Of a stretch of DNA of 64,000 nt, positions 7,608 to 22,744 are shown one piece after another (the stretch's first letter is position 1; each line of letters opens with the position of its first letter). The notes beneath the pieces were generated by a model. The model saw only the letters and a list, made by a program, of their open reading frames with translations, did no database searches and was not told where the DNA came from. Origin of the DNA: Candidatus Latescibacterota bacterium (GTDB lineage: Bacteria > Latescibacterota > UBA2968 > UBA8231); contig OZ242318.1 in NCBI GenBank assembly GCA_965208105.1, positions 501,731 through 565,730 on the forward strand, written 5' to 3'. The position numbers and the translations under genes are program-made.

Positions 7608-8909
7608 ATGATAAAAACGCCCATCACGGTGCAGGACCTGAGAAGGAGAATATACCTCAAGGCGAAGGCTGACAAGGCCTGGCGTTTCTGGGGACTGTAC
7701 GTCCATGTATGCAAGAGGGAAACACTCCACGAGGCCTACAAGGCGGCCAAGCGCAATAACGGAGCCCCGGGTATTGATGGCATGACGTTTGCGGCCATCG
7801 AGCAGTCCGGCGTGGAGACGTTTCTGGAAGGCCTACGTGATGAACTGATCTCCGAGACCTATCGGCCCATGAGGAATCGTCGGGTGGAAATTCCCAAGGG
7901 AGAGGGTACAACCCGTACTCTGGGGATACCCAGCATACGAGACCGCGTGGTCCAGGGGGCGCTCAAGCTGATTCTGGAGCCTGTCTTCGAGGCTGATTTC
8001 CAACCGGGGTCGTATGGGTACCGGCCGAAGCGCACGGCCCATCAGGCCATTCAGCGGGTGGCGCAAGCGGTGGTTCAGAACAAGACCACGGTAATAGACG
8101 TGGACCTGGCTTCGTATTTCGACAGGATCCGCCATGACATTTTGTTGAGGAAAGTGGCGGAACGGGTTGATGACCAGCAGGTTCTGAGGCTGCTGAAGTC
8201 CATTCTCAAGACCGGCGGCCGACGCGGCGTTCCTCAAGGGGGTGTCCTTTCCCCGTTGCTCAGCAACCTCTATCTCAACGGGGTAGACCAGATGCTGGAG
8301 CGGGCGAAGCGCGCCACTCGACGAGGGCGGTATACTTATATCGAGTATGTGCGGTTTGCTGATGATGTTGTGATCCTGGTCGACGGCTATCGGCGGTGGA
8401 AGTGGCTCGCCGCGGCGGTCGACCGACGACTTCGGGAAGAATTGGCCAAGCTCGATGTAGCGCTCAATCACGACAAGACGCGTCGAATCGACCTGACCCG
8501 AGGCGAACACTTCGGATTCCTGGGGTTTGACTCTCGTCGAACCAGGACTCGGCGGGGGGTATGGGGCGTGCGCAACGTGCCGACGATGAAGGCACGTACG
8601 GCGCTTCTGCGCAAGCTCAAGGAGCTTTTTCGACGTTTTCGCTCCCAACCGATCGATCGGGTCATCGGCCTGATCAACCCGGTGTTGCGCGGATGGGTCA
8701 ACTACTTCCGTGTGGGGCAGTCGAATCGATGCTTCAGGTATGTGAAAAACTGGGTTGAGAAGAAGATCAGACGCCATCTGATGCGCGCGCGCCAAGGTCA
8801 GAGTTTTGGCTGGAAGAGGTGGAGTAGCCGGTGGTTATACAAAGAGCTCGGGCTATTCTCCGAGTATCGGGTGGCCTACCACCGGCCGAAAGCCCCTCCG
8901 GTACAATAG
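7608..8909 (+). CDS. group II intron reverse transcriptase/maturase (intron-encoded protein)
   Basis: Start MIKTPITVQDLRRRIYLKAKADKAWRFWGLYVHVC is typical of bacterial IEPs. RT motifs RVEIPKGEGTTRTLGIPSIRDRVVQ, GYRPKRTAHQA, GVPQGGVLSPLLSNLYL and RFADDVVILV (FADD in place of YADD). Maturase/X domain INPVLRGWVNYFRVG. Confidence 0.9.
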   Translation: MIKTPITVQDLRRRIYLKAKADKAWRFWGLYVHVCKRETLHEAYKAAKRNNGAPGIDGMTFAAIEQSGVETFLEGLRDELISETYRPMRNRRVEIPKGEGTTRTLGIPSIRDRVVQGALKLILEPVFEADFQPGSYGYRPKRTAHQAIQRVAQAVVQNKTTVIDVDLASYFDRIRHDILLRKVAERVDDQQVLRLLKSILKTGGRRGVPQGGVLSPLLSNLYLNGVDQMLERAKRATRRGRYTYIEYVRFADDVVILVDGYRRWKWLAAAVDRRLREELAKLDVALNHDKTRRIDLTRGEHFGFLGFDSRRTRTRRGVWGVRNVPTMKARTALLRKLKELFRRFRSQPIDRVIGLINPVLRGWVNYFRVGQSNRCFRYVKNWVEKKIRRHLMRARQGQSFGWKRWSSRWLYKELGLFSEYRVAYHRPKAPPVQ

Positions 8910-8975: not shown

Positions 8976-9081
8976 GACGTGGCGGGAGTTGGAAACGTGA
9001 TCAGGGGAGCCGGACTGAGGCCCATCGCGAAAGCGGTGGAATCGTCACCGGACCCTACCGTTGGCGCGCCAGCTCTCGACC

Positions 9082-10311
9082 CTACCAGGCCAGCTCAAGA
9101 TATGTGACGATGCGCTGCTGATTCCACCCCAAAGTTGTAGCCTGTTCGACGGCCCAATGGATGGTCTTACTGAGCGTTTCCCGCGACACGGCTCGACAGG
9201 CTTGGCCGATGGTCGTCAGCACACCATGTGGCCAGTCACGCGCACGGCCCTGCCCCATTTGGGCTATGAGGAGACTGTGCGCCAGCATCGCCAGATACAG
9301 GTGCCGGGTCTGGCCCTTGGCGCTGCGTAGCTGACAGTCTCCCATGCCCAGATGTTGCTTGCCGTCCCGGTGAAAGGTCTCCGTGCCCGTCCAGCGTTTG
9401 CGGTAGACGTTCAATATACGGCTGATCTCCCAATACACCCGGTTGGTCACCAGGTACTTGACCGGCTTCCTGCCGTTCTTGCGATCCCACAGAATCACCA
9501 GGCGGACGGGGTGATCGAGGTGGGGAAGACGCACGGTTCGGGTGTAATACCACTGTTTGCGATCGCCGATGTCGACCCGTTTGCGCTCCTCGGGGGCGAC
9601 CCCGGCGGCCCACTCGACCGCCTTCATCTCACCGCCCTTGAAACGCACCTTGCGGTTGCTCTTCAAATCCCCCACGTAGCCGCGCGTATGGCCTTGGATA
9701 TGGTTGAGACTCTCGGCACTGGTGAAGTAGCAGTCAAAGGCGAAATCCCCGGGAATCTCTCGCTCCACCACCCCGTCCACCAACTCCTTGAACAGGTCCG
9801 TGTGATTCTTGAAGGGCTCGGCCGACTCGCCTTCGACGCCCTCTTCCCGCTTGCGAAAACGACGAAACTCCAAAGGATAATGTTTCCCCGACGAACACAC
9901 GTAGTTGGCGATCACGTAGTCGTGCGCAATCAGATGGCGCCCCTCGGCATGGTCCCAGAACCAACCCGCGCCCTCGATCATCTCCCCGCTATGGCCGACC
10001 AGGGTGTTGTCGATGGCGATCACCCCCCGCGCTGAATAGCGGGTCGAAGAATGACCCTGCAGCCAGGCCAAACGATGTTCGTTGAGTTGTTCCACGTCCC
10101 ACGGCACCTGGGTGATCCAACGGTTCAGGCAGGATTGATCCGTGGTCTGGGCAAACTCGGCGTTGATCGCCGAAACGTTCTTGCGCTCGGCGACCATCAG
10201 CCCGGTCAGATACTCGGCAAAATGCCAGCGCTCCGGGGTGTTGGCGAACATCCAGCCGAATTCGTCCACGGTTTTCTCGACTATCGTAGGAAAAGAAATA
10301 ATACCCGGCAT
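9082..10311 (-). CDS. IS701-family (IS4-like DDE) transposase
   Basis: 409 aa. The C-terminal region YLVTNRVYWEISRILNVYRKRWTGTETFHRDGKQHLGMGDCQLRSAKGQTRHLYLAMLAHSLL matches the conserved DDE/RW..E.F..K...G pattern of IS701/IS4-type transposases as I recall it. Confidence 0.8.
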   Translation of the reverse strand: MPGIISFPTIVEKTVDEFGWMFANTPERWHFAEYLTGLMVAERKNVSAINAEFAQTTDQSCLNRWITQVPWDVEQLNEHRLAWLQGHSSTRYSARGVIAIDNTLVGHSGEMIEGAGWFWDHAEGRHLIAHDYVIANYVCSSGKHYPLEFRRFRKREEGVEGESAEPFKNHTDLFKELVDGVVEREIPGDFAFDCYFTSAESLNHIQGHTRGYVGDLKSNRKVRFKGGEMKAVEWAAGVAPEERKRVDIGDRKQWYYTRTVRLPHLDHPVRLVILWDRKNGRKPVKYLVTNRVYWEISRILNVYRKRWTGTETFHRDGKQHLGMGDCQLRSAKGQTRHLYLAMLAHSLLIAQMGQGRARDWPHGVLTTIGQACRAVSRETLSKTIHWAVEQATTLGWNQQRIVTYLELAW

Positions 10312-10676: not shown

Positions 10677-11822
10677 TTGGAGCGGTCGCACTACGCCGAA
10701 GAAAAACCCGGGAGAAGACGACCCGCGCGTTTGGCTTCCCCGCAAGCAAAACAGGGAAAAAACAGGGAGGAAGGGACGCTCTATCGCGACCTCTTTGAAG
10801 AATCCCACGAGGCCCTCATCATCACCGAGCGAGACGGGAAAATCGTCGATGCCAATAACGCTGCCAGCGCTCTGTTTGGCTACGCACGCGCCGAGCTGGT
10901 GGGCATGAATATCCGCTTCGTCTACTTGAACGCGGAAGACCGAGAGCGCTTTCAGGAAAAGGTCGAGAAGCAGGGATTTGTGCGCGATTTTGAACTGGCT
11001 TTTCACACCAGCAATGGACGTCGACTCGACTGCTTGGTGACGACCACCGTGCGGCGAGCTACAGACGGTACCGTAGCAGGCTATCAGGGCATCATCTTCG
11101 ACATTTCCGAGCGCAAGCGCATGGAAAAAAAACTGCACAAGTATCAGCGAAAGCTCCAGTCGTTAACGGTAGAACTTTCCAGAAACGCAGAGCATGAACG
11201 GCGGTGTCTTGCCGATAACCTCCACGATGGCCTCGGGCAGGACTTGGTGCTGGCGCAGTTAAAGCTCGAAACCCTGCGGCATGCCAACGATAGTGATCAC
11301 AAGGCTCTGATCGCCGATCTGCAGGCTGTGCTCGACCGGATGAGTCTCTACCTCCGCTCCGTGACCTTTGATCTCACCCCCCCCATGCTCCACGACCTAG
11401 GGCTCATACCGGCCCTGGAGTGGCTCAGTGAACATATCGAGCAGGACTACGGATTGAAGGTGGAACTAAAAACCAATGGCGACTGCGAAGTCCCTGATCA
11501 AAATACACGTGACCTGACGTTCAGATGCATTCGCGAGTTGTTACACAATGCCGCACGGCACGCCAATACGGATCTGGCCACAGTGTCGTTGTGTCCTGGC
11601 TCGACGCATTTGCAGGTGCTGGTAGAGGACACCGGACAGGGCTTTGACCTTGTGCAGTTGGACCCTGAGAAGGATAATTCTCATTTCGGCCTGTTCAGCA
11701 TTCGCGAGCACCTGACCTATATCGGTGGCCATTTCGCCATCGAGTCGAGCTTGGGACAAGGCACGAGTTGTCTGCTGACAATTCCGTTTTCCCTCTCCGG
11801 CCAAGAGGATAATTCCCAATGA
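10677..11822 (+). CDS. PAS-domain sensor histidine kinase (HisKA_3 / NarX-type, cytoplasmic)
   Basis: PAS region: YRDLFEESHEALIITERDGKIVDANNAASALFGY...GIIFDISERKRME. H-box: ERRCLADNLHDGLGQDL. HATPase_c: LHNAARHANT...VEDTGQGF...GGHFAIESSLGQGTSCLLTIPF. TTG start 9 nt after AGGAGTG. The stop overlaps the RR start (ATGA). Confidence 0.85.
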   Translation: MERSHYAEEKPGRRRPARLASPQAKQGKNREEGTLYRDLFEESHEALIITERDGKIVDANNAASALFGYARAELVGMNIRFVYLNAEDRERFQEKVEKQGFVRDFELAFHTSNGRRLDCLVTTTVRRATDGTVAGYQGIIFDISERKRMEKKLHKYQRKLQSLTVELSRNAEHERRCLADNLHDGLGQDLVLAQLKLETLRHANDSDHKALIADLQAVLDRMSLYLRSVTFDLTPPMLHDLGLIPALEWLSEHIEQDYGLKVELKTNGDCEVPDQNTRDLTFRCIRELLHNAARHANTDLATVSLCPGSTHLQVLVEDTGQGFDLVQLDPEKDNSHFGLFSIREHLTYIGGHFAIESSLGQGTSCLLTIPFSLSGQEDNSQ

Positions 11823-12466
11823 CTTCGCGTGTTCTTCTGGTGGACGATCACCAGATAGTGCGTCAGGGGCTGCGCTTGCTGCTCGAAAGAGAAAGCGATA
11901 TCGAGATGGTCACCGAGGCCGGAGACGGCCAGACGGCCATCAACTTGGTCCTGGCCTCTCCACCTGACCTTGTGGTCATGGATATCGGCATGCCCGGCTT
12001 GAACGGCGTCGAGGCCACGCGCCAGATTCGAGCCAAGAACCCCCAGGTGCAAGTAATAGCCCTGTCGATACACGCCGACAAGCGCTTTGTGGCCGCCATG
12101 CTGCAGGCGGGGGCCTCGGGCTTTTTGCTAAAAACGGAGGCCGCCCGCGATCTGGTGGAAGCGATCCGGACGGTAATGGCCGGCCACAAGTACCTGAGCC
12201 CGCGATTGATTGATCCCCTCGTTGACGATTACGTGGAGCACCTCGTCGACCAAGGCGACCCATCCCTCCTGACCGCACGCGAGCGCGAGGTGTTGCAGCT
12301 CATCGCCGAAGGAAAGACAACGGCGCAAATAGCCAATCAACTCATGGTAAGCGAGAAAACCGCCGCCACTCATCGCCAGCATATCATGGAAAAGCTCAAC
12401 CTGCATAATGTGGCCGAGTTGACCAAATACGCGATCAAAGAAGGGCTCACTGGACTGGATGAGTGA
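11819..12466 (+). CDS. LuxR/NarL-family response regulator (REC + HTH)
   Basis: REC: VLLVDDHQIVRQGLRLLLE...DLVVMDIGMPGLNG. LuxR HTH: LTAREREVLQLIAEGKTTAQIANQLMVSEKTAATHRQHIMEKLN. Confidence 0.9.
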   Translation: MTSRVLLVDDHQIVRQGLRLLLERESDIEMVTEAGDGQTAINLVLASPPDLVVMDIGMPGLNGVEATRQIRAKNPQVQVIALSIHADKRFVAAMLQAGASGFLLKTEAARDLVEAIRTVMAGHKYLSPRLIDPLVDDYVEHLVDQGDPSLLTAREREVLQLIAEGKTTAQIANQLMVSEKTAATHRQHIMEKLNLHNVAELTKYAIKEGLTGLDE

Positions 12467-12677
12467 TCCTTTGGGCTGGGTGGCCGCTTCGCTTCGTCCA
12501 ACCAGGTGTCCTTGAACTATTACCTCCTCGACCTCGCCGGCAAGATACGGTAAATCCGTCGGCGCAAAAGACGGTCCTTGCTCTTGGAAGGATGGGCAGG
12601 TGTGATCGCGCAATTGAAAACATGCCCCATTGGCTTCCTGCTCTTAGCTATTGACGCTCTTTGAGGAGGCCTGAGAA

Positions 12678-14021
12678 ATGTTCAAAAATGCACACTGGCT
12701 ATGGAGGATCGGAGCACTTTGTATCTCCAGCGTCCAGGCTGAAGAGGCTGCCAAGCTCGACTTGGACTACTGCCTTGAAGCGGCCATGGAGCACAACCGC
12801 GAGTTGATTCAGGCGCGCGGAAAAATCCGCCAAGAAGAGAGCAATGGAGTCATGGTCCACTCCCGCTTCATGCCCAGTCTGGACCTGAGATCCAACTACA
12901 ATGCCAGCCGCACGGAAGCGCAGGGAAAGACCGAAGATCATGTCGCCAGCCATCTGCGTTTTTCCCAACGCCTCTTCGAATTTGGCCCCGAATTAGCCCA
13001 TGACGTGCAGCAGCGCGAGAACCTGCGCAAAGCTATCTATGCCTACCAAGACCAGGTCTACCGGGTGCTTTCCCAGGTGTGGCAAACCTTTCATTTAATC
13101 CTGCTGCAGGAGCGTCAGATCGCCACTCGCCACCGGTCTCGCCAGGACTTTCAAGAGGATTACGAGCGCAAGCAAGCCCGTTTCGAGCGCCGCCTCGCCG
13201 GCGAAGAAGAGGTGCTCAGCGCCTATCTCAACGTCCTCAACGAGGAGTTGGCCATCAACAATCTGGAGCGCGAGCAGTTCAACGACGAGATGACCCTGCT
13301 GCGCCTCATCGGCCAGCCCATCGGCCTCCACCTGCGGCTTTCGAGCGCGCATGTGAATTTCACCCTGGAGCCGGAGCAGGCCGTGAAGCTAGCTCTCGAA
13401 AACAGCGTGCCAATCGCTTTGGCCGCTTGGCGCCTTGAGGAGCAGCAGCGCATTCTGCGCGAGATCGACTGGGAGTACAGCCCGGATCTGTCCTTTGGCA
13501 CCGGCGTGGAGGACGGTCGGCGCAATGCCAAGGTGAGCCTCGACAGAGACGGCGGGACCTGGGGAATGGATCTGTCTTCGGAACTCCAACTCCGCGAGGA
13601 GCAGCCGGAGGACCCGGCATTCAGCGACGAGACCCGCTGGTTCGCACAAGTCGAGGCGCGCATCCCCATCTTTGAAGGAGGCTTGCGTCTGGGTCTGGAG
13701 CGCCGTGAGAAAGCGCGCTTGCACCAGATCGAAGTCGAGTTGGGCGACCTACGCGCCAGCGCCGAGCTGCAGGTGCGCCAGGCCTACCAGTCCATGCTCG
13801 AGGCCGAGGGCCGCCAGCGCATCCAACAGGAACGAGTGCGCATTGCCCGCCGCCGCCTGGAGATCAACCAGATTCTCATGGACAAAGGCCAAGCCGACGA
13901 GAGCAAACTGGAGCAGCTCCGCAGCCAGTTCTTCCAGGCTCAGGACGTGCTTTTTCAGAACCAGGTAACTTACATCATCCAGCAGGCCACCTTGCGCCGC
14001 TTCATGGGATATTTTAAGTGA
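12678..14021 (+). CDS. TolC-like outer-membrane efflux protein (OEP family)
   Basis: 447 aa. The N-terminal LDLDYCLEAAMEHNRELIQARGKIRQEE and a second-half repeat with LRLGLERREKARLHQIEVELGDLRASAELQVRQAYQSMLEAE are typical of the two OEP repeats. The stop overlaps the next gene start (14018-14021). Confidence 0.8.
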   Translation: MFKNAHWLWRIGALCISSVQAEEAAKLDLDYCLEAAMEHNRELIQARGKIRQEESNGVMVHSRFMPSLDLRSNYNASRTEAQGKTEDHVASHLRFSQRLFEFGPELAHDVQQRENLRKAIYAYQDQVYRVLSQVWQTFHLILLQERQIATRHRSRQDFQEDYERKQARFERRLAGEEEVLSAYLNVLNEELAINNLEREQFNDEMTLLRLIGQPIGLHLRLSSAHVNFTLEPEQAVKLALENSVPIALAAWRLEEQQRILREIDWEYSPDLSFGTGVEDGRRNAKVSLDRDGGTWGMDLSSELQLREEQPEDPAFSDETRWFAQVEARIPIFEGGLRLGLERREKARLHQIEVELGDLRASAELQVRQAYQSMLEAEGRQRIQQERVRIARRRLEINQILMDKGQADESKLEQLRSQFFQAQDVLFQNQVTYIIQQATLRRFMGYFK

Positions 14022-15532
14022 AATCCTGGTTCCTCTTTATTTTTTCCGGCCTTACCGTCTTCGCTCCGGCCCATGCCGCTGAACAGGGCCTGACAAAAGA
14101 GCAGCAACTCAGCAAGCTCCGTCTCCAGGAGCGTCTCCTATCGCTCGAGGAGCGCCGAACCCGCCTCCAGACTCACAGAGAGGAACTGGACGCCACCCGC
14201 GAACTCTTCGACCAAGGCTTCATCGCTCCGCAGAAATTCAAGCAGACCCAAAACCATTACGAACGGGCGCGCTTGGACCACGAGCGGGCCGAGATCCTGC
14301 TCGAAGAGGCCAAACTAGACTTGCTGAAGACGGCCACCCACATCATTGTGGCCGAGGCGCGCAAGTACAAAACCGAAGACGGCAAGATCATGGTGGACAT
14401 TACTCTGGAGAACGCCTCGGATATCCGCGATGCTCTGTTAGTAGACGCAGCCCTTACCGAGGAGGAGGTGCGCATTCTGCTCAAGGTAGAGAATATCTTC
14501 GTCTCCCTGCGTAACGGCCCCATCGTCGGCGAGCCCTACGAGATCCGCGTTCCCGCCCTCGCCGTGGGCGAGCGCCGCCAACTCACCTACCGCCTCCTCA
14601 GTGATAAAAACGCCGTCATCGTCGGCCTCAGCTACTTGGACATCAAGGACGAAAAGCCCGTCATCCTCAAAAAGGGAAGCCAGCAGGAACTGCCCAGCAT
14701 CAACTCGGCCCAGTTCTCGCAGGAAGGCGAATTGAACCAGAAGGTCCACTTTGGGCTCACCCTGCAGCGCCTGGCCGAGGAGGAGCGCAATTTTGCCTTG
14801 GCCGTGGTAGGCTTGCCGCAGCGCATCAACTACGCCTTTGTCAATCGGGGTGCCAAAGTGAACCAGGTCAAATTCGACGAAAACATTTCGGAGGTCGACC
14901 TGGCCCTGGAACTGGAAATTCCCGAGAAGCTGAACGGCCGCTTCATCGGGATCACCCGGACTTTCTTCGCTCTCGTCATTCAGCCTGGAGAGTACGCCCG
15001 CATCAACGCCCTCAAGGCCCGTTACGGCGATGCTCCCCTGCCCGAAAAGGAGGTCAAAGAACTCAAGGCCAACTACGTCAAGCTGGAGTTGGTTCCCGTG
15101 GGCATCGGCAAGCTCGAAGTTCTGATCTCCAACCGCTACCAGGAAATCCAGGCAGGAGAAGGCCTGCAGATCCAGGTCGAGTTTCTCAACCGCGGCACCG
15201 CGGCTGTACAGAACATCAAGGCCGAACTCGACCTGCCCTACGAGTGGGACAGCAGGGTGGAGCCCGCGCTCGTCAAGCTGCTCCAGCCAGGCGAAAGCAC
15301 TCCGGTGCAGATCTGGGCGCGGCCTCCAGAGCACATCGCCGTGGGCGACTACGAAGTGGGATTGGAGGCTCAGGGCCAGGTGGGCACCGAGAATATCGAG
15401 TCTTTGGAGAAGAACATTACCATCCGCATCAGCGCCCGCTCGAATATTACCGGCAATGCCATCCTCATCGGCGTCCTCGTCCTGCTGGTTCTGGGCATTG
15501 GCGTGGCCAGTATAAAAATCAGCCGCAAATAG
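14018..15532 (+). CDS. secreted coiled-coil + NEW3/CARDB-like beta-sandwich protein with C-terminal TM anchor (paralog 1)
   Basis: Signal peptide MKSWFLFIFSGLTVFAPAHAAEQ. About 100 aa heptad-rich region (LDATRELFDQGFIAPQKFKQTQNHYERARLDHERAEILLEEAKLDLLK). C-terminal NEW3-like segment (LQIQVEFLNRGTAAVQNIKAELDLPYEWDSRVEP...GDYEVGLEAQG). TM tail NAILIGVLVLLVLGIGVASIKISRK. Confidence 0.75.
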   Translation: MKSWFLFIFSGLTVFAPAHAAEQGLTKEQQLSKLRLQERLLSLEERRTRLQTHREELDATRELFDQGFIAPQKFKQTQNHYERARLDHERAEILLEEAKLDLLKTATHIIVAEARKYKTEDGKIMVDITLENASDIRDALLVDAALTEEEVRILLKVENIFVSLRNGPIVGEPYEIRVPALAVGERRQLTYRLLSDKNAVIVGLSYLDIKDEKPVILKKGSQQELPSINSAQFSQEGELNQKVHFGLTLQRLAEEERNFALAVVGLPQRINYAFVNRGAKVNQVKFDENISEVDLALELEIPEKLNGRFIGITRTFFALVIQPGEYARINALKARYGDAPLPEKEVKELKANYVKLELVPVGIGKLEVLISNRYQEIQAGEGLQIQVEFLNRGTAAVQNIKAELDLPYEWDSRVEPALVKLLQPGESTPVQIWARPPEHIAVGDYEVGLEAQGQVGTENIESLEKNITIRISARSNITGNAILIGVLVLLVLGIGVASIKISRK

Positions 15533-15534
15533 AT

Positions 15535-17067
15535 ATGGCTTTCTTCTACCTTGCCATTGCCGCCGCTCTCCTGCTCTTCACTCCGCCGGCTACGGCCGCC
15601 AAGGATCTACGCACCAAGGAGCAGCGCCTTTACGATATTCAGCTACGCAACGCCCAGTGGCAGATAGACAAGGCGCGGCTCGACATGGAAATCAAGCGGA
15701 GCGATTACGATGAGATCCAGGAACTCTTCGACCAGAAGATCAGTACCCTGGAGGCACTCAACGAGGCGCGACGCCACTACCAGCAAGCCAAGCTCAAATA
15801 CGATCAGGCCGTGATCAACCTCGAGTCGAGACGCCTCTCCTTTCTCAGGGACGCCACCCACATCTCGATTGTCGAGGCCAAGAAGTACCGCACCCCTGAG
15901 GGTTACCGCCAGGTGGAGATCACCTTGGAGAATGCCTCTAACCTCAACCAGGCCGCCTCGCTCAATCCCGACAAGAGCCTGGACGAGGTGAAGGCTCTGC
16001 TCGAAATCCAGAATGTCCGGATATCCGTGCGCCAGAACAATGACCTGATCATCGGCGACCCCTACGAGATTCTCGTACCCTCCTTCAGACTAGGCGAGCG
16101 CAAAAACCTGGTCTTTCGTTTGCTCAATGACTTGGACGATGTGAATATATCTTTGATCCTGCGCGACAACCAGCGGGAAGACTTCAGGATTGTGCTGCGT
16201 AAGGAGTCTCCCCAGGATATCCCCACCATTAATTCCGTGCAGTTTTCCCAAGAGGGCAACCTCAACTCCCGGGTCCACTACGACCTCATCTTGGAGCGTC
16301 TGGCCGAAGACGAGAAGACCTTTCACTTGAACGTCATCAACCTACCGCGCGAGATCGACTTCGCCTTTCTCGACAAGGCCACCAACGCCAGCCTCACCCA
16401 GGTGAAGTTCAGCGAAGAGGTCACCCGTCAGCAACTCGAACTCGAGATCCAGATCCCCGAAAAACTCAGCCGGCACTACGTTGACCAGACTATCGAGTTC
16501 TACGTCTTTGCCACCGACCAGGAAGGCTTCCAGCAGGTCAGCCAGTTGAACCGCAAGTACGGCGTCAAACGCATGGAATTGGAGGACATCAACTCCATCA
16601 AGGGGAACAAGGAGCGCTTTGAATTGATTCCCCGGGGACAAGGCGCCCTGGAGACGATCATCGCCAACCGCTACCAGGAGATCAGGGTGGGCGAAGAGGT
16701 CACCGTGCGACTCGACCTGCTCAATACGGGGACCCTTGAGGTCGAGGCGGCGCACTTGATTTTGACCCCCCCGTTGGGGTGGAGCCGTGAGGTCGCGCCC
16801 GATACCATCGCCCGCATCATCCCCGGCGAGAAAGAGCCCGTCAATATCATTCTCTCCCCCCCAGCCGAAATAGATGTAGGCGAGTACGGCGTCCGGGTGG
16901 AGGCGGCTGGCTACGTGGGCAGCGAGAAGGTCGAGGCCGAGGAAAAGGACATCACCATCCGGGTCGAGGCGCGCGCGCGTATCGTGCGCAATGCCCTCAT
17001 CGTCGTCGCGGTAATCGCCTTGGTGGTGAGCGTGGCTGTCTGGAGCATCAAGGTCAGCCGCCGATAA
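15535..17067 (+). CDS. secreted coiled-coil + NEW3/CARDB-like protein with C-terminal TM anchor (paralog 2)
   Basis: ATG at 15535, 3 nt after the previous stop. Signal peptide MAFFYLAIAAALLLFTPPATAAKD. Same domain order as 14018..15532 (VTVRLDLLNTGTLEVEAAHLILTPPLGWSREVAP...GEYGVRVEAAG; TM tail NALIVVAVIALVVSVAVWSIKVSRR). The track ORF start at 15244 runs through the upstream gene. Confidence 0.75.
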   Translation: MAFFYLAIAAALLLFTPPATAAKDLRTKEQRLYDIQLRNAQWQIDKARLDMEIKRSDYDEIQELFDQKISTLEALNEARRHYQQAKLKYDQAVINLESRRLSFLRDATHISIVEAKKYRTPEGYRQVEITLENASNLNQAASLNPDKSLDEVKALLEIQNVRISVRQNNDLIIGDPYEILVPSFRLGERKNLVFRLLNDLDDVNISLILRDNQREDFRIVLRKESPQDIPTINSVQFSQEGNLNSRVHYDLILERLAEDEKTFHLNVINLPREIDFAFLDKATNASLTQVKFSEEVTRQQLELEIQIPEKLSRHYVDQTIEFYVFATDQEGFQQVSQLNRKYGVKRMELEDINSIKGNKERFELIPRGQGALETIIANRYQEIRVGEEVTVRLDLLNTGTLEVEAAHLILTPPLGWSREVAPDTIARIIPGEKEPVNIILSPPAEIDVGEYGVRVEAAGYVGSEKVEAEEKDITIRVEARARIVRNALIVVAVIALVVSVAVWSIKVSRR

Positions 17068-17072
17068 AGAGA

Positions 17073-17147
17073 AAACCTGCGAAACTCCAAGCGGCCGAAT
17101 TGACCAAGTACGCGATCAAAGAAGGACCCGCTGGACCAGAGAAATAA
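17073..17147 (+). pseudogene. remnant of the 3' end of a LuxR-type response-regulator gene
   Basis: AACCTGCGAAACTCCAAGCGGCCGAATTGACCAAGTACGCGATCAAAGAAGGACCCGCTGGACCAGAGAAATAA aligns with the last ~70 nt of the RR gene at 12395-12466 (...VAELTKYAIKEGLTGLDE versus AELTKYAIKEGPAGPEK). No upstream coding part is present. Confidence 0.7.
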
Positions 17148-17164
17148 CCCCTGGGTCCGGTGCC

Positions 17165-17245
17165 TCTCCGCCGCAAAATCAGCTTTTCTGAAGGCAAAAA
17201 TCAGGTGTTTGCCCGATTGAAAAGCACCGTCTCCGTCTCTAATTT
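17165..17245 (+). promoter_or_regulatory. operator/promoter module copy A (upstream of the ABC ATPase)
   Basis: Palindrome GGCAAA-N9-TTTGCC at 17193-17213. Preceded by AAAATCAG (17175) and AAAATCAG (17197), 22 bp apart. Followed by TTGAAA (17217-17222), a 17-nt spacer and TAATTT (17240-17245). ATG of the next gene at 17290 with GAGGGAGG RBS. Homologous copies at 18685-18763 and 32180-32257. Confidence 0.6.
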
Positions 17246-17289
17246 AATTTGAACGACTCAACAACTTCTTACCCTGAGGGAGGTATATC

Positions 17290-18012
17290 ATGCTTGAAAT
17301 CATCTCCATGTCCAAGCACTACGGCGAGGTGCAGGCGGTCGACGAGCTCAACCTCACCATCCGCCCCGGTGAAATCTTTACTATGCTGGGGGCAAATGGC
17401 GCCGGCAAGACCACTACTCTTATGGTATCCCTTGGCTTTACCGAGCCGACGGCAGGCACGGTGAAGATCTGCGGCGTCGACGTGACCAGGGATCCCTTGG
17501 AGGCCAAAAAACACGTGGCTTACGTGTCAGAAAACGTCATGCTCTACGGCAATTTCACCGCCCGTCAAAACCTGGATTTCTTCGCCAAGTTAGGGGGGCG
17601 CAAGGACGCCACCGACGAAGAGTACGAGCGCATCATGGAGCGGGTGGGTCTGCAGGCGGACGCCTTCAACCGGAGGGTAAAAGGCTTTTCCAAAGGCATG
17701 CGCCAGAAGCTGGGCATCGCCATTGCGATCGTCAAAAACGCCGAGGTCATTTTGCTGGACGAGCCCACTTCAGGGCTGGATCCCCAGTCAGGGACCGAGT
17801 TTTTGCAGCTTTTGACCGAACTCAGGCACGAAGATAAAACCATCTGGATGACCACGCACGATGTCTTCCGCGCCAAGGCCATCGCCGACCGGGTGGGGAT
17901 CATGGTGAAGGGCAAGCTGGTAAAGACCTTTACGCGCGAGGAGTTGGAACGCGAGGATCTGGAGAAGATCTACGTGGAGTATGTCAGCCAGGAGGTGGGA
18001 CAGGCCGCCTGA
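17290..18012 (+). CDS. ABC-2-type transporter ATP-binding protein (no intact cognate permease adjacent)
   Basis: Walker A GANGAGKTT, signature FSKGMRQKLGIA, Walker B ILLDEPTSGLD. 240 aa, single NBD. Confidence 0.9.
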   Translation: MLEIISMSKHYGEVQAVDELNLTIRPGEIFTMLGANGAGKTTTLMVSLGFTEPTAGTVKICGVDVTRDPLEAKKHVAYVSENVMLYGNFTARQNLDFFAKLGGRKDATDEEYERIMERVGLQADAFNRRVKGFSKGMRQKLGIAIAIVKNAEVILLDEPTSGLDPQSGTEFLQLLTELRHEDKTIWMTTHDVFRAKAIADRVGIMVKGKLVKTFTREELEREDLEKIYVEYVSQEVGQAA

Positions 18013-18097
18013 GCACAACTCAGAAGTACTTACTTGTGATCGCCAAAAAAGAGATTGTCCACAATATCCTGAGTTTCAGGTCTGTGGCGATCCATGG
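18009..18097 (+). pseudogene. stub of an ABC-2 permease gene (first ~28 codons only)
   Basis: The frame overlapping the ATPase stop reads (L)STTQKYLLVIAKKEIVHNILSFRSVAIHG. This resembles the N-termini of the intact permeases at 24966/26383/27802 (MFKTILFKEIKGQLGTVTF). It has no ATG (CTG at the position of the usual ATGA overlap). Similarity ends near 18097. Confidence 0.55.
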
Positions 18098-18102
18098 GTT
18101 GC

Positions 18103-18196
18103 CAGTGGCAGTTTCGCGATCGAGTCAACGCCGGGGCAAGGCACGCGCTGCCTGCTGGCGGTTCCATTTTTATATCCAAGCCGGAGGGGACCCTCC
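18103..18196 (+). pseudogene. 3'-terminal remnant of a second sensor-kinase gene
   Basis: Encodes SGSFAIESTPGQGTRCLLAVPF, colinear with the C-terminus GGHFAIESSLGQGTSCLLTIPF of the kinase at 10677..11822. Nothing upstream of the G2 box is present. The reading frame runs into the next ATG without its own stop. Confidence 0.7.
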
Positions 18197-18628
18197 ATGA
18201 ATACGCAGGTGTTATTAGTAGAGGACCACGAGGCCGTGCGCCAGGAGCTGCGCTTGTTGCTTGAGCAACAAAGCGGAATTGAGGTAGTCGCCGAGGCCGG
18301 CGACGGCCGCACGGCCGTCGCCTTGGCCTCCACCTGTCTACCCGACATTGCGGTCATGGACGTTGGCCTGCCCCACCTGAATGGCATTGAGGCGACGCGA
18401 CAGATACGCGTCAAGGCGCCGGGCGTGAACGTGGTGGCGCTGTCGGTGCACGCGGACCGGCGTCTTGTAGACGGCATGTTTCAAGCAGGGGCTTCGGCGT
18501 ATGTGTTGAAAACGGCGGCTACCCGCGAGTTGGTGGAAGCGATCCGGCAGGTACAGGCCGGCCGCAAGTTCGTAAGTCCCGAATTGATCGCCCTCTTCGG
18601 CGAGGACTATGGCGCGTCTTCCTTCTGA
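18197..18628 (+). CDS. REC-only response regulator (LuxR-type paralog lacking the HTH domain; possibly a truncated gene)
   Basis: 143 aa. MNTQVLLVEDHEAVRQELRLLLEQQSGIEVVAEAGDGRTAVALAS...DIAVMDVGLPHLNGIEATRQIR is colinear with the RR at 11819..12466 up to ...SPELIALFGEDY, then diverges and stops. GGAGGGG RBS 7 nt upstream. Confidence 0.7.
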   Translation: MNTQVLLVEDHEAVRQELRLLLEQQSGIEVVAEAGDGRTAVALASTCLPDIAVMDVGLPHLNGIEATRQIRVKAPGVNVVALSVHADRRLVDGMFQAGASAYVLKTAATRELVEAIRQVQAGRKFVSPELIALFGEDYGASSF

Positions 18629-18684
18629 CGGCGCATTACAGAGAAAGATTCACCGAACTGGTGTTGTGAATCTCTCAGACACTC

Positions 18685-18763
18685 AGGCCGCAAAATCAGC
18701 TTCTCTGAAGGCAAAAATCGGGTGTTTACCCGATACCGACCAACCTGTCCTGTTGCTTAATTT
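18685..18763 (+). promoter_or_regulatory. operator/promoter module copy B (upstream of the peptide operon)
   Basis: AAAATCAG (18692) and AAAATCGG (18714) are 22 bp apart. Palindrome GGCAAA-N9-TTTACC. Conserved TAATTT at 18758-18763. The -35 position reads ACCGAC (poor), suggesting activator dependence. The first operon ATG is at 18860. Confidence 0.55.
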
Positions 18764-18859
18764 ATCCTTAAGAGTTGCGTCGATTTTTAACAAGTTGGAC
18801 AAGCAGCACTGGACGCCGAGGTAGTCGACCTACCGCCGCAAGCCTGGAGGAGAGATCGA

Positions 18860-20854
18860 ATGAAAAACATGAACATTAATAATGTATGCCTCTTCCTCGT
18901 GGGTATAATAGTATGGCCAACCTGTGGGACGGCAAGTTGGCACCTGAAGGCGTCCGGATATGAAGTTTCCAAGGTAAGGTATTCGATTTTCGGCGAAGGG
19001 TTGAAACAACACCGAGGATACTACTTTCCCGAATACCTGCCCGCAGACCGCGCGTTACATGTCGGATTCAAGCCCATCCGCTTCCAGAAATTTTCCGCCC
19101 TGGCCGAAGCTCTCGGCGCGAAAAGCGAAAAAATCCACGCTTGGAAAACCGAATTTGAGTCTCCTGTCAGGTGCTTGGACCAGATCACCTTCTTGTATCG
19201 CCGCATATATGCCAGGAACGTCAGTGAATACACAATTTATCTCCAATCCCCTCAGACTGAACAGTGGTACAGAAAAAGGATAATAATCCCTTTTAAGGGG
19301 TACCAGATCCCTTCATACGACGCGATTTCGCAATGGGAACCGTTGGTAGACGACGGCTCCGAAGAGGTATCCCAGTTTTTGAGCGAGGTTAACCATTTCG
19401 ATAAAATTGGCCAATTGGCGATCGTGGTTACTCCCTCGGATACGGACTTCGATTTTGTCATCGGAGACTTGCAAATAGTGGACCGGGAAATCGGCTATGC
19501 CGATTTCCATCATCCTTTTTTCGACCCGATTTTGAGCGAGGATTCCGCCCAGTACATCGAAAGAGATTCCTTTTACAATGCCTCAGGTATTCCCGCCCTG
19601 CTCCTTCCCATCAGTTGTTATGCCATGCACAGGAATTACGGGTCGGTTTTCCATTTCGACCCAGGGAATCGGGAAGTGGATGCCGGAGACATCAGGGACC
19701 TGAAAGTCAACGTTATCAAGCGAATTTTAGAGCTGTACTCATTCTATGAAGAACGCGGATTGGATAGGAAAAGCGCCCTGAACAGGTTTGCCTTCATCGA
19801 GAATTACGGGCTGGACAGAGAAGCTTTCGAGGACAGCGTCCGCGCTTTATTGGCAGATTTTCATGATGCCCATCTATCCGTAGCAAACAACGCCCATCTA
19901 TCCATAGCAAACAAGAAGAACAGATGCGCTTTCAATCATCCATTGGCGCTGTACAATATCGGCGGCAAAGTCTACGTGGCGGCGGTGTTCGACTCCCTAC
20001 TCGCGGACGATATAGAAGTGGGTATGAAGGTGCTCAAATTTGATGGAGTACCTGTGATTGAAGCGATAGACAGGGAAAGCGAGCATTACCGGGGCAGCAG
20101 CAAAATAAGAAGAAGGAAAGCGACGAGAAACCTGCTCGCATGCAGGCGAGACGAAAGGGCAACATTGAAACTTGCATCTGTTGATGGGGCAGTTAAAGAC
20201 GTCCTGATTGAAGACAGGAAAGTGCGGATTCCGTCGAATCTCGTGCCGCGACACGGAGAATTCAGGGTAGAAAGTGGGATAGTGTATTTTCGTATCCGCC
20301 AATGGACCTATGACGTGTGGATCCGGTTTTTGAACCATGCGGATGAACTCGAAAGCGCGAAGGGCCTGATCATCGATTTGAGGTCCAACGGTGGAGGTGA
20401 CGGCGGCACGGTGCTAAGGATGGTATCGGCGTTCATAGACGAGAACGCGCTATGTGGGAGCGAGTACTGTCCCGCCGACGGCAGAATCGAGAGCATGGTG
20501 ATAAGACCCAACGACAAATTCCATTTCGATCTGCCCGTCGTCATCCTGGCCAATGAGGCGACTGCCTGCGCAAGCGAGAACTTCATCGATATAATGAGAT
20601 CTACCAATCGGGCCATCATGGTGGCGGATAGTCACACACAGGGCCTTTTTTCGTCCAGGATCGACTTGATATTCCCGGACGGGATGAGGATTCATACCAA
20701 TAGCTTATCCAAACCGTTGAGACCCGATGGTTCTTCATACGAGGTAAAGGGGCTCGAGCCAGACATCTGGGTACACTTGAACACAATTGATGATCTGGCA
20801 CATCGGGAAGACAAGATACTGCGAACCGCAAATCATCTGCTGGAAGCGCAGTAG
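18860..20854 (+). CDS. S41-family (C-terminal processing / tail-specific type) peptidase with PDZ-like domain, N-terminal signal/anchor
   Basis: 664 aa. N-terminal hydrophobic segment VCLFLVGIIVWPTCG. PDZ-like GGKVYVAAVFDSLLADDIEVGMKVLKFDGVPV. S41 motifs GLIIDLRSNGGGDG and VVILANEATACASENF (Ser motif). The usual G-K-G lysine motif is not evident (DSHTQGLFSS). Lower-GC codon usage. Confidence 0.7.
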   Translation: MKNMNINNVCLFLVGIIVWPTCGTASWHLKASGYEVSKVRYSIFGEGLKQHRGYYFPEYLPADRALHVGFKPIRFQKFSALAEALGAKSEKIHAWKTEFESPVRCLDQITFLYRRIYARNVSEYTIYLQSPQTEQWYRKRIIIPFKGYQIPSYDAISQWEPLVDDGSEEVSQFLSEVNHFDKIGQLAIVVTPSDTDFDFVIGDLQIVDREIGYADFHHPFFDPILSEDSAQYIERDSFYNASGIPALLLPISCYAMHRNYGSVFHFDPGNREVDAGDIRDLKVNVIKRILELYSFYEERGLDRKSALNRFAFIENYGLDREAFEDSVRALLADFHDAHLSVANNAHLSIANKKNRCAFNHPLALYNIGGKVYVAAVFDSLLADDIEVGMKVLKFDGVPVIEAIDRESEHYRGSSKIRRRKATRNLLACRRDERATLKLASVDGAVKDVLIEDRKVRIPSNLVPRHGEFRVESGIVYFRIRQWTYDVWIRFLNHADELESAKGLIIDLRSNGGGDGGTVLRMVSAFIDENALCGSEYCPADGRIESMVIRPNDKFHFDLPVVILANEATACASENFIDIMRSTNRAIMVADSHTQGLFSSRIDLIFPDGMRIHTNSLSKPLRPDGSSYEVKGLEPDIWVHLNTIDDLAHREDKILRTANHLLEAQ

Positions 20855-20903
20855 AATCCATAGGCTTTGGAAGGCGACAAACTGTAAGAAAGGAGAACAT
20901 GCC

Positions 20904-21062
20904 ATGAAAGAGCTCATTAAGCCCAACTTGACTGAGGAAGAGTGCGAGAATAACGAGGTCGCGGCATATTGCGACCTTTATTCCTGCGCGCCCGTGAGTT
21001 GCAACCTTTGGTCGTGTCAACCCGTTTCGGGTGATGACGAGTCCGGGGACATTCTGTTCTAA
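20904..21062 (+). CDS. Cys-rich precursor-peptide candidate (52 aa) with four C-X3-S pentads
   Basis: AAGGAG (20889-20894) lies 9 nt before ATG 20904. MKELIKPNLTEEECENNEVAAYCDLYSCAPVSCNLWSCQPVSGDDESGDILF. It sits immediately upstream of a radical SAM/SPASM gene. The 91-aa track ORF from 20787 overlaps the end of the upstream gene and is less likely. Confidence 0.75.
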   Translation: MKELIKPNLTEEECENNEVAAYCDLYSCAPVSCNLWSCQPVSGDDESGDILF

Positions 21063-21248
21063 TTGCCAATTGTTCAGCGGAGGCCATAACAGCGAAGGAC
21101 CATTCGCCTGGAACACGTCTCTTGACCGTTTGACCCCATAACTACTTTTCGATCAGTTTGTCGCCTTCCACGTCTTTCAGAAGCCGTCTTAGACCCTCGG
21201 TGAGGATCACTAGGAACTTTAAGGAGGCTTCTTAAAAAGGAAAATGAG

Positions 21249-22730
21249 ATGTTTAAGTTGAGCTATTATACCTTCATCATCCCCGTAACCGAGAAGGGGA
21301 TGTACCTCGCCTATAATTCATTTACCAATGCATTGCTGGAATTGGAGTGGCATGAAGGCAAGAAGATGCTGGAGTGGAAAAAGAAGGATGCCATTCCCTC
21401 TTCGGAACTCGACAGCGAAGAAAAGCGCTTTGTAAACGCTTTGCTCAACAATCACTTTCTGGTAGACGAGGGGGTTGATGAGAAAGAGCGCTTGCATCGC
21501 CGCATTTCTACCCAGAAAGAAAGGTTCTGGAGAGAACCAGCGACCATGGCGCTCACCATATTGCCGACTATCTCGTGCAATATGGGTTGTTCCTATTGTT
21601 TTGAGGGATACAAGCCGTTCGGCAAGGTTATGAACAATGAGGTCATGGACGATATAGCCGAATTCGTGGTAAGAGAAATCAAGCAAAGCACTGTCGTCAG
21701 TTCCTTCAAAAAAATGTTCATCCAGTGGTACGGGGGGGAGCCCCTGCTGCAACCACATGTCGTCGATAGACTTTCGGAAAAATTGTACCGAATCGCCGAC
21801 GACAACCAAATCCCCTATACTTCGATGATCATTACGAACGGAACCTATCTAACGCCCGCTATATGGGATCTGTTAAAGGAAGCGAGAATTGACCGGATAC
21901 AAGTGACCATTGATGGCCACAAGGACTCCCACAACAGGCAACGCCCCCTCACCTTGCCGATCATCGGCCAGGAAATAGAGGCGGGTAGCTATGACACCAT
22001 ACTGGAAAACCTGAAGTATTTTCCGGACAAGATGGCTCTTAATATCCGGATAAATTCGGATAAGAATATAATCAATTCCCTGGGCGACCTCCTGGACGAC
22101 CTGGAGGAAATTGGCCTGTGGCCTCAGCAGGCTAGCCATGTGAGCCTGACCCTCGCCCATAAGGAAACTCCTTATGAAGAGTCGGGAGTAGTAGACATCG
22201 AGTCTCAGTACTTGAGCCTCAAGCAGCAAACCAAGGCGCAGAAGATATTCCAGGACATGAAGCTCAATCACTACAACAATTGGGCCTCCAAAAATAACAG
22301 GGTTTTGGCCAGGAAGCGTCTGGCCTACCCTGAACCGGCAACTTTTGTATGTGGGACTGCCTCGCTGCCTTACAGTTTTTCCATAAGTTACGACGGGCAT
22401 ATTCACCAGTGCATGGAGCAAGTCAACGATCCTAAAGCTAAGTCACATTACATTGGCGATACCTACAATATCCACGATCCCCTGCGGAAAATTTTCCTGA
22501 ACTGGGATAAATTCCTTCACCATCCAATGTGCACTGATTGCAGGGTACTGCCCATATGCGACATGGTTTGTCCTCACAAGGACCCGCCCGAAGCGTGCTG
22601 TGATTGGAAGGTAGACCTCAAATCGCGGTTGAAGGAGCAGTATATCGCGTCCATTGATACGCCCCACCTAATTGAGTCTTTCGACGCAGTAGAACAACAG
22701 CGGCAGAAAGATTTCACCCTCGTGATATAG
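21249..22730 (+). CDS. radical SAM / SPASM-domain peptide maturase
   Basis: CNMGCSYC (CxxxCxxC, 21576-21599). GGEPLL motif. SPASM 7-Cys pattern CGTASLPYSFSISYDGHIHQC ... CTDCRVLPICDMVC (C-x2-C-x5-C-x3-C). About 100-aa N-terminal extension that could be a leader-recognition (RRE-like) domain. Confidence 0.9.
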   Translation: MFKLSYYTFIIPVTEKGMYLAYNSFTNALLELEWHEGKKMLEWKKKDAIPSSELDSEEKRFVNALLNNHFLVDEGVDEKERLHRRISTQKERFWREPATMALTILPTISCNMGCSYCFEGYKPFGKVMNNEVMDDIAEFVVREIKQSTVVSSFKKMFIQWYGGEPLLQPHVVDRLSEKLYRIADDNQIPYTSMIITNGTYLTPAIWDLLKEARIDRIQVTIDGHKDSHNRQRPLTLPIIGQEIEAGSYDTILENLKYFPDKMALNIRINSDKNIINSLGDLLDDLEEIGLWPQQASHVSLTLAHKETPYEESGVVDIESQYLSLKQQTKAQKIFQDMKLNHYNNWASKNNRVLARKRLAYPEPATFVCGTASLPYSFSISYDGHIHQCMEQVNDPKAKSHYIGDTYNIHDPLRKIFLNWDKFLHHPMCTDCRVLPICDMVCPHKDPPEACCDWKVDLKSRLKEQYIASIDTPHLIESFDAVEQQRQKDFTLVI

Positions 22731-22744
22731 GGCCCCTAATACCC

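Follow-up and report, generated by a model that had tools for sequence, protein, structure and literature searches.

Can a protein built from a helical hairpin, immunoglobulin (Ig)-like β-sandwiches and a C-terminal membrane anchor serve as the periplasmic adaptor between an ATP-driven transporter and a TolC-type channel? The question is raised by a locus at positions 12678–18012 of a 64,000-nucleotide stretch from a Candidatus Latescibacterota bacterium (GenBank assembly GCA_965208105.1, contig OZ242318.1, positions 501,731–565,730), the whole of which we call the window and by whose numbering coordinates are given. Here a gene for a TolC-family outer-membrane factor (OMF; Pfam family OEP) is followed by two tandem genes for NEW3-domain proteins, paralogs A and B, and by a gene for an ATP-binding cassette (ABC) ATPase of the ABC-2 type. 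The original prediction, made from the sequence alone, took the two NEW3 proteins for adaptors of an ABC-2 pump in place of membrane-fusion proteins (MFPs). Our analysis indicates that the products of the OEP and NEW3 genes are probably the outer-membrane and periplasmic components of a tripartite efflux pump driven by ATP, with an ABC-2 (type V, NosY-like) engine. We propose the adaptor role because of the predicted hairpin, its profile matches to MFP hairpins, a tip motif in the family and the conserved gene order.

All four predicted genes, TolC-like, two tandem paralogs of about 505 residues and ABC ATPase, were recovered. The OEP gene (12678–14021, plus strand) encodes a 447-residue protein that matches Pfam OEP in two repeats (E = 2.8e-30, 106 bits against a cutoff of 22) and has a signal-peptide-like N-terminus without a lipobox (…VQA-EE, here and below with a hyphen at the putative cleavage site). 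Its match to the NCBIfam TolC subfamily (E = 1.4e-20) lies under the curated cutoff and the NodT cutoff is likewise not reached, and on these family matches we place it in the TolC/OEP family with the subfamily left unassigned. Paralog A (14018–15532, plus strand, 504 residues; Pfam NEW3 E = 3.2e-13) and paralog B (15535–17067, plus strand, 510 residues; E = 4.1e-13) are 39% identical across 493 residues with E = 8e-119, and are therefore true paralogs. The OEP stop codon is overlapped by the GTG start of paralog A, paralog B starts 2 nt past the stop of A, and among the genes of 12678–18012 GGAGG motifs precede only the OEP gene (7 nt 5′ of its ATG) and the ATPase gene; this pattern thus fits translational coupling of OEP, A and B. 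The fourth gene (17290–18012, plus strand) encodes a 240-residue ABC-2-type, DrrA/GldA-like ATP-binding subunit (Pfam ABC_tran E = 4.9e-31). It had been counted into a single four-gene operon, but forms a separate unit with its own upstream module behind a relic of a response-regulator gene.

We built an AlphaFold2 (AF2) model of paralog A from 51 homologs (mean predicted local distance difference test score, pLDDT, of 87) and combined it with Pfam and hydropathy. Paralog A is predicted to consist of a signal peptide (residues 1–20), an α-helical hairpin (residues 27–106, nucleotides 14096–14335, plus strand), two β-sandwiches (109–216 and 227–347), a NEW3 domain (351–472), a transmembrane (TM) helix (477–503) and a cytoplasmic tail, SRK. 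Paralog B follows the same plan, with the TM helix at about residues 483–509 and the tail SRR. Both N-termini are signal-peptide-like with an AxA site and without a lipobox (…AHA-AE in A, …ATA-AK in B), and hydropathy gives one C-terminal hydrophobic helix per paralog. Because of the cleavable N-terminus and the basic C-terminal tail, the paralogs are predicted to be type I membrane proteins whose entire ectodomain lies in the periplasm of a diderm cell. Three β-sandwiches follow the hairpin, and only the third passes the Pfam NEW3 threshold (cutoff 24.4 bits), with 50.1 bits at residues 378–452 of A and 49.8 bits at about residues 385–458 of B. The cleavable signal peptide, the NEW3-type sandwiches and the single C-terminal TM helix with a basic tail were all part of the original prediction and were borne out. 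Within the TM helix, L483, V491, S498 and R503 are near-invariant, which suggests a specific helix contact rather than a passive anchor.

The hairpin is the part that would reach the OEP protein. In the model of A it is an 80-residue antiparallel pair of helices (27–65 and 71–106) with block-mean pLDDT values of 86–97 over residues 31–106, so that the extended hairpin on which the adaptor idea depended is predicted with confidence. The heptad-rich stretch of about 100 residues proposed earlier is indeed a predicted helical hairpin, but its length is 80 residues. At 1.5 Å per residue the hairpin of A would measure about 55 Å, and the hairpins of AcrA and MexA fall in that range.

We searched the 51-sequence family profile against all Protein Data Bank (PDB) sequences. 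Residues 26–101 matched adaptor α-hairpins, namely MexJ (E = 2.6e-4), five MexA sequences (about 6e-3) and a MacA/MexA chimera (0.01), with further matches to 4l8j (0.012), ZneB (0.5) and TriAB (1.5). A second profile, built from distant single-copy relatives alone, gave TriAB (5e-3, both hairpins), MexJ (6.5e-3), 4l8j (0.015) and ZneB (0.18). Profiles were needed for this, as a single-sequence phmmer search of the PDB found only MexJ with a non-significant E-value of 0.32. The third β-sandwich matched glycosidase accessory domains with both profiles.

The likeness could instead be that of a chance or convergent coiled coil, with the NEW3 proteins being structural or adhesive Ig-domain proteins of the envelope that merely lie beside transporter genes. 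The PDB E-values are marginal, no member of the family is matched by any Pfam MFP family, and a Foldseek search of the PDB with the whole model of A returned only generic Ig-like arrays (integrin legs, alpha-2-macroglobulin, S-layer, adhesin and ciliary proteins). However, adaptors make up 10 of the 12 PDB matches on the hairpin region, including every match with E < 1, and the remaining two have E > 1; other coiled-coil proteins were also represented among the sequences searched. The C-terminal TM helix and short basic tail point to fixation in the inner membrane of a diderm, not to the cell surface, and the genes keep their order in Latescibacterota, Gemmatimonadota, Zixibacteria, Ignavibacteria, Chlorobi, KSB1, Aminicenantes and Phycisphaerales. 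We give this explanation very little credence. The whole-model Foldseek matches were set aside as a functional clue, being generic tandem Ig-like arrays only; since the search gave nothing else, no solved structure shares the overall architecture of the NEW3 proteins.

The family resemblance to MFPs is confined to the hairpin. With the whole paralogs, no Pfam MFP or lipoyl family matched at E ≤ 0.01, and searches with the hairpin and middle fragments (E ≤ 10) and with 36 distant relatives (E ≤ 1) gave no Pfam MFP hairpin, lipoyl or β-barrel family. Neither Pfam nor the AF2 model of A shows a β-barrel or membrane-proximal domain. In the model the hairpin is N-terminal and an Ig-like sandwich follows directly, with no lipoyl domain split by the hairpin, and the sole anchor is the C-terminal helix, at the opposite end from the N-terminal anchor of MFPs. 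NCBIfam holds no model for the NEW3 proteins. Since they have no lipoyl, β-barrel or membrane-proximal domain, these are not canonical MFPs, as the original prediction had seen from the missing N-terminal anchor, lipoyl and β-barrel parts. They lie outside the MFP family and are best described as an architectural variant of the periplasmic adaptor that shares the OMF-docking hairpin, which the NEW3 proteins may have inherited.

Is the arrangement found elsewhere? The family comprises 1397 clusters (50% identity) at E < 1e-3, 235 of them at E < 1e-30, with members in Latescibacterota, Gemmatimonadota, Zixibacteria, Ignavibacteria, Chlorobi, KSB1, Aminicenantes, Glassbacteria and Phycisphaerales. 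When the C-terminal 280 residues of the NEW3 protein were used as query, with the aim of reaching NEW3 proteins of monoderms or archaea, only close relatives came back. We compared the gene context of 69 loci, in which two classes were defined by identity to A: class 1 (at least 42%, 37 distinct loci) and class 2 (about 30%, 29 loci). The order in class 1 is always OEP, A-type, B-type. An OEP gene lies directly 5′ of the pair in all 35 loci with upstream flank, so that co-occurrence with TolC-like genes, without which the original prediction would have lost its footing, is regular in two-paralog loci. The overlap of OEP stop and A start is also present in other loci where checked (including the locus L010), and B orthologs (62–78% identity) always come after an A-type gene. 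The ATPase gene lies inside the flank examined in 22 of the 37 class 1 loci, with ABC-2 permease genes as well in all but three of the 22, and the ATPase and permease genes are often divergent from the OEP promoter region. Class 2 loci carry one NEW3 gene, with the ATPase gene directly 3′ in all 26 assessable loci and then, in most, one or more permease genes. Two class 2 loci (L040 and L045) have an OEP gene directly upstream. Among carriers with cultivable relatives, a metagenome-assembled genome (MAG) of Gemmatimonas phototrophica has the OEP-A-B trio (L037), and MAGs of Ignavibacteriaceae and Chlorobiaceae have single-copy operons (L052 and L054).

The tip of the hairpin bears on the docking role. 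RxxxLxxxxxxS is the TolC-binding surface of MacA, AcrA and HlyD by mutagenesis and binding assays, and an Arg-to-Ala change in HlyD abolished TolC binding (PMC3391258). In the hidden Markov model alignments of both profiles the family tip consensus falls on this adaptor motif in the same register. Aligned tip columns of 109 representatives, clustered at 50% identity, hold Arg in 53, Leu in 96 and Ser or Thr in 90, and L63 is invariant in the 51 sequences of the alignment (51/51). In paralog A the tip reads A59-x3-L63-x6-A70, in register with the MFP motif, and in paralog B E-x3-L-x6-T. Across the loci, 21 of 26 single-copy loci without an adjacent OEP gene retain the motif Arg, whereas another residue replaces it in all 37 OEP-linked two-paralog loci, where the tips are [T/A/L]-L-[A/S/P/T] in A and [E/A/I]-L-T in B. 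Lys or Asn occupies the Arg position in three single-copy loci that have an adjacent OEP gene or are closely related to such loci. The pattern is suggestive of a generic docking motif kept where the OMF is shared and unlinked, and of an adaptor tip that co-diverged where a dedicated OMF is co-translated.

The same comparisons bear on a second explanation, by which the NEW3 proteins would be accessory periplasmic subunits of ABC-2 transporters, serving as scaffold, substrate capture or fence in the manner of NosD or GldG. They would then make no contact with OEP, the hairpin would serve only for oligomerisation, and the OEP protein would work with another partner or indirectly. The tightest and widest linkage in the family is indeed that of NEW3, ATPase and permeases (the 26 assessable single-copy loci), adjacent OEP genes are mostly found in one clade, and the window tips are without the motif Arg. 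NosY, the closest solved fold for the window permeases described below, has a periplasmic protein docked on it and operates without an outer-membrane channel. This explanation has to set aside the OEP gene directly upstream in every assessable two-paralog locus, with stop/start overlap where checked. It would also leave it to coincidence that OMF-docking adaptors are the only solved proteins to match the hairpin significantly in two profile searches, and a tip without any binding partner would hardly account for the R/L/S motif being conserved precisely where no dedicated OEP gene is present. On balance we consider a purely accessory role unlikely.

What would power the pump? The ATPase scored E = 3.8e-61 against the NCBIfam drrA subfamily and 3.5e-45 against a "lantibiotic protection" subfamily, the latter under its cutoff. 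Three ABC-2 permease genes lie 7 kb 3′ of it (24966–29229): permease 1 (24966–26366, plus strand; Pfam ABC2_membrane_2) and its tandem paralogs permease 2 (26383–27786, plus strand) and permease 3 (27802–29229, plus strand), both with Pfam ABC2_membrane_2 plus DUF3526. The three proteins are pairwise 68–69% identical, and their DNA segments 74–84%. Related loci carry one or two such genes (two in L010, one each in L070 and L014), and the three in the window are thus a recent local amplification. The AF2 model of permease 1 (pLDDT 85.6) has six TM helices, a membrane domain like that of NosY and, on the periplasmic side, a long helical insertion. In this model TM1 carries a periplasmic extension, and the insertion between TM5 and TM6 is formed by helices 273–298, 305–356 (52 residues) and 376–396, the region that is DUF3526 in the two paralogous permeases. 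The best Foldseek match is NosY of NosDFY (TM-score to target of up to 0.76), and the periplasmic insertion has no structural match in the PDB. The window genes thus show the make-up of an ABC-2 (type V) exporter, with a separate DrrA-like ATPase and six-TM ABC-2 permeases.

The window permeases belong to a rare clade, with five close relatives found and identity of 29% or less thereafter, while the window ATPase is 77–85% identical to the ATPase beside OEP-NEW3-NEW3 in the other genomes compared. The window ATPase and permeases as the ordinary partners of the OEP-A-B trio were rejected on this ground, the permeases being only about 25% identical to those of most related loci and the ATPase about 83%. 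Window-type permeases are found in a block co-oriented with OEP-A-B in three loci (L010, L070 and L071), in the order S8 peptidase/DUF1611, permease(s), ABC exporter, a 50-residue hydrophobic open reading frame (ORF), OEP, A and B. In L010 and L070 the ATPase gene comes next after B, and the L071 contig ends before that point. A further locus (L013), cut at the contig start, retains the block from the exporter onward, and in L014 the window-type permeases are divergent and adjoin OEP-A-B. The 50-residue ORF between exporter and OEP is conserved (L010, 8446–8598; L070, 7541–7693), and the 211-bp spacer upstream of the window OEP gene contains no equivalent. We read the window as a permuted version of an L010-type block with gene relics at the junctions, as judged from these gene orders.

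A permuted block could also mean a broken one. On that account OEP, A and B in the window are no longer part of a working pump, having been rearranged away from their original permeases, and the ATPase serves only the permeases of the peptide cluster in which they lie, as inner-membrane immunity of the LanFEG type. The usual ATPase-permease-permease unit is disrupted in the window, relics flank the ATPase gene, genes for an insertion sequence (IS) transposase and for a group II intron reverse transcriptase are found close by on the upstream side, the permeases come from a rare divergent clade, and the promoter-like module described below precedes the ATPase but not the OEP gene. Yet OEP, A and B are intact ORFs without frameshifts and are 56–78% identical to their orthologs, and the combination recurs, with the same permease type co-oriented with the trio in three loci (and the ATPase too in two of them) and divergent in another. 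Loss of the pump in the window seems to us quite improbable.

Several points nevertheless weigh against a tripartite pump. The pTM (predicted template modelling score) of 0.60 leaves the relative orientation of hairpin and stalk in A uncertain. The E-values to MFP hairpins are modest (best 2.6e-4), coiled coils can give spurious matches, and the hairpin helices also give sub-threshold matches to Pfam OEP. Single-copy operons are usually without an adjacent OEP gene, and the covariation of tip motif with OEP linkage rests on very few independent lineages. In the window itself the tips are A-L-A (A) and E-L-T (B), with Leu and a small or hydroxyl residue kept and Arg lost. The window permeases share only about 25% identity with their counterparts in most class 1 loci, their pairing with the window ATPase and adaptors is inferred from proximity alone, and the peptide cluster has a classical ABC exporter of its own (29222–31015), so that the peptide may not need the pump. 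The earlier adaptor proposal therefore stands in part: the hairpin, the MFP-specific profile similarity, the tip motif of the family and the linkage to OEP and ABC-2 genes speak for it, but the window paralogs are without the motif Arg.

Taking a tripartite efflux machine as the probable arrangement, we infer its assembly, stoichiometry, contact with OEP, direction of transport and substrate as follows. Each NEW3 protein would be exported by Sec and its signal peptide removed, and the conserved C-terminal helix would hold it in the inner membrane beside the permeases. The three Ig-like domains would form a stalk around the helical periplasmic insertions of the permeases. The N-terminal hairpins of A and B would come together in a ring, for which A3B3 is the simplest composition, by analogy with TriABC and its two adaptors. 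This ring would dock tip-to-tip on the periplasmic end of the OEP trimer, as in MacA, AcrA and MexA. Hydrolysis by the ATPase (17290–18012) would drive the permeases to take up substrate from the membrane or periplasm and push it out by way of the adaptor tube and OEP. In the window and a few relatives the likely cargo would be the product of a cluster for a ribosomally synthesised and post-translationally modified peptide (RiPP), either for self-protection or for passage of the outer membrane. The classical ABC exporter could take the peptide across the inner membrane, leaving the tripartite pump to remove it from the periplasm or membrane.

We compared this proposed machine with known systems. 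MacAB-TolC is likewise ATP-driven and tripartite, with a one-TM anchor of the adaptor in the inner membrane, an RxxxLxxxxxxS hairpin (a motif seen across the NEW3 family, its Arg being lost in the window) in tip-to-tip contact with the OMF (as proposed here) and a sizeable periplasmic domain on the permease, and a MacA/MexA chimera is among the PDB matches to the NEW3 hairpin. However, MacA has an N-terminal anchor and lipoyl, β-barrel and membrane-proximal domains, whereas the NEW3 proteins have a C-terminal anchor and three Ig-like sandwiches, and MacB has the FtsX (type VII) fold whereas the window permeases are ABC-2/NosY-like. A protruding ABC-2 periplasmic domain within adaptor stalks would thus resemble the MacB/MacA arrangement in logic, not in fold. 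TriABC-OpmH of Pseudomonas aeruginosa shares the use of two tandem paralogous adaptors, both retained, which implies a hetero-oligomeric ring, and the TriAB fusion (6vej) matches the NEW3 hairpin in both profile searches. Unlike the NEW3 proteins, both Tri adaptors are MFPs of the canonical kind, and they serve a resistance-nodulation-division (RND) engine rather than an ABC-2 one. The Escherichia coli systems YbhGFSR and YhiI-RbbA-YhhJ also have an ABC-2 engine that works with a periplasmic adaptor and, presumably, with TolC, but their adaptors are of the ordinary HlyD family; no HlyD-family domain is detectable in the NEW3 proteins.

Among ABC-2 systems of other kinds, NosDFY(L) provides in NosY the closest solved permease fold, shares ABC2_membrane_2 and has a periplasmic partner that docks on NosY. 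It differs in that NosY has about 270 residues and is without the DUF3526 insertion, NosD is a β-helix and there is no outer-membrane channel. The LanFEG and BceAB immunity transporters also have an ABC-2-like ATPase and permeases, in or by a RiPP cluster and near a two-component system, but act at a single membrane without adaptors or OMF. The third sandwich passes Pfam NEW3 (NPCBM_assoc, PF10633) and so resembles the NEW3/CARDB domains of glycosidases and COG1470-type proteins, which to our knowledge have no N-terminal RLS-type hairpin. All periplasmic adaptors that we know to have been described, for RND, ABC and major facilitator superfamily pumps and for type I secretion, share the lipoyl/β-barrel/membrane-proximal scaffold. 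Models of pump assembly and of adaptor-transporter communication rest on that scaffold. Literature on NEW3 with ABC, DUF3526, PF10633/COG1470, Ig-like adaptors and ABC-2/YbhG held nothing on the present architecture, no curated family met in the searches describes it, and a 2026 review of adaptors does not use the terms ABC-2, YbhG, non-canonical, Ig-like or atypical.

It is possible, though we would stop short of calling it probable, that these proteins form an undescribed class of adaptor that joins an MFP-type, RLS-tipped TolC-docking hairpin to an Ig-like stalk and a C-terminal anchor, in a distinct NosY-like ABC-2 tripartite pump widespread in phyla of the FCB (Fibrobacteres-Chlorobi-Bacteroidetes) group and their relatives. 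With a dedicated, operon-encoded OMF, duplication would have led to an obligate A/B pair and divergence of the tips, and in the window lineage a RiPP cluster would have captured the pump via its own permeases. If this is correct, the hairpin would be a portable OMF-docking module, and the TolC-coupled engines would come to include ABC transporters of type V (NosY/ABCG-like) whose adaptor is not an MFP. A function would also follow for at least several hundred clusters annotated only as "NEW3 domain-containing protein", largely from uncultured phyla. The tip motif appears to follow OEP linkage, with the generic RLS tip where no OMF is encoded nearby and a diverged tip where a dedicated OMF is translationally coupled, and this offers a natural experiment on adaptor-OMF specificity. 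Locally, the pump suggests an expulsion route for an orphan radical-SAM peptide in a diderm producer.

That peptide belongs to the RiPP cluster at 18860–32082, which contains genes for an S41 peptidase, the precursor, a radical-SAM maturase, an S8 peptidase-DUF1611 fusion, the three ABC-2 permeases, the ABC exporter and a BtrH_N-like protein; seen from the ATPase, the permeases lie beyond the S41 peptidase, precursor, maturase and S8 peptidase. The precursor has 54 residues, ends in …GDILF and falls in the NCBIfam FlmA family, and the maturase is of the FlmE/OhkG-family radical-SAM/SPASM type. Precursors of this DD(I/V)LF type are orphans whose mature product is not known (PMC12703449). No peptide arginase was found among the cluster ORFs in the Pfam scan.

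Does the pump serve the peptide? In the window sub-lineage the RiPP cluster with its own permeases is, by the recurring gene orders, stably associated with the OEP/NEW3/ATPase set, and this association supports, without proving, export of the peptide or immunity to it. A promoter-like module is common to the window ATPase and the peptide operon. Most genomes, however, carry the OEP/NEW3 module among housekeeping genes with no peptide cluster nearby, and the peptide link is thus a lineage-specific elaboration rather than the general role of the module. The original prediction of an export or immunity route is accordingly kept for the few related genomes in which the linkage recurs, but does not extend to the majority.

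The regions between the genes record how the locus was put together. A PAS histidine kinase and a LuxR-type response regulator (10677–12466, plus strand; Pfam) are encoded directly 5′ of the OEP gene and are candidate regulators. The 222-bp spacer between B and the ATPase gene contains a 68-nt relic of the 3′ end of the LuxR-type response-regulator gene (17093–17160, plus strand; 76% identity to 12412–12479) and one copy of the promoter-like module. The segments 12412–12479 and 17093–17160 form a direct repeat that exactly brackets OEP-A-B, which suggests that the trio arrived as a cassette. Independently assembled contigs exclude a mis-assembly where the relics adjoin the genes: a 14.6-kb contig, built separately from each of three runs of one sample, covers 11500–19500 with zero differences, and a contig from another study bridges 16726–17250, the junction after B.

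The promoter-like module, about 75 nt long, contains an imperfect palindrome (ATCAGGTGTTTGCCCGAT), and repeat alignment places its copies at 17170–17246 (plus strand), 18687–18763 and 32182–32258. The first copy precedes the ATPase gene, the second precedes the S41 peptidase gene and the peptide operon, and the third has no obvious plus-strand gene downstream. The palindrome is plausibly a site for a LuxR/NarL-type regulator. Two of the copies come after relics of response-regulator genes, and it looks as though a cassette of kinase, regulator and promoter had undergone several rounds of duplication. No copy of the module lies upstream of the OEP gene, and the idea that OEP-NEW3-NEW3 shares a promoter module with the peptide operon was dropped. 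A scan of 12400–19000 for consensus promoters and terminators remained at background level, and no RNA-seq run contained the locus. Overlapping the 3′ end of the ATPase gene is a pseudogene-like ORF (17981–18628) that encodes the last 40 or so residues of a histidine kinase and a receiver without the LuxR DNA-binding domain; at the DNA level this ORF shares 70% identity with 11819–12118. Immediately 5′ of the kinase-regulator pair lie genes for a group II intron reverse transcriptase/maturase (7548–8909) and a DDE (IS) transposase (9082–10311, minus strand), which fit the local rearrangements.

Some class 2 loci show a layout of their own. A protein of about 270 residues with a PDZ domain is encoded directly 5′ of the single NEW3 gene in L054 (Chlorobiaceae, 9060–9890) and L058 (Zixibacteria, 9058–9876), and an ORF of comparable length recurs upstream in other class 2 loci. 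In L054 a histidine kinase and an OmpR-type regulator in divergent orientation were confirmed as well. The PDZ/two-component layout recalls modules that sense peptides or respond to envelope stress. In one locus labelled "archaeon" (L050), NEW3 is accompanied by an ATPase and six permeases; since its tip is like those of Gemmatimonadota and Glassbacteria loci, the contig may be mis-binned bacterial DNA.

Sequence near-identical to 12678–18012 is present in marine and sponge metagenomes from several studies, and the host of the window is probably a marine or sponge-associated Latescibacterota bacterium.

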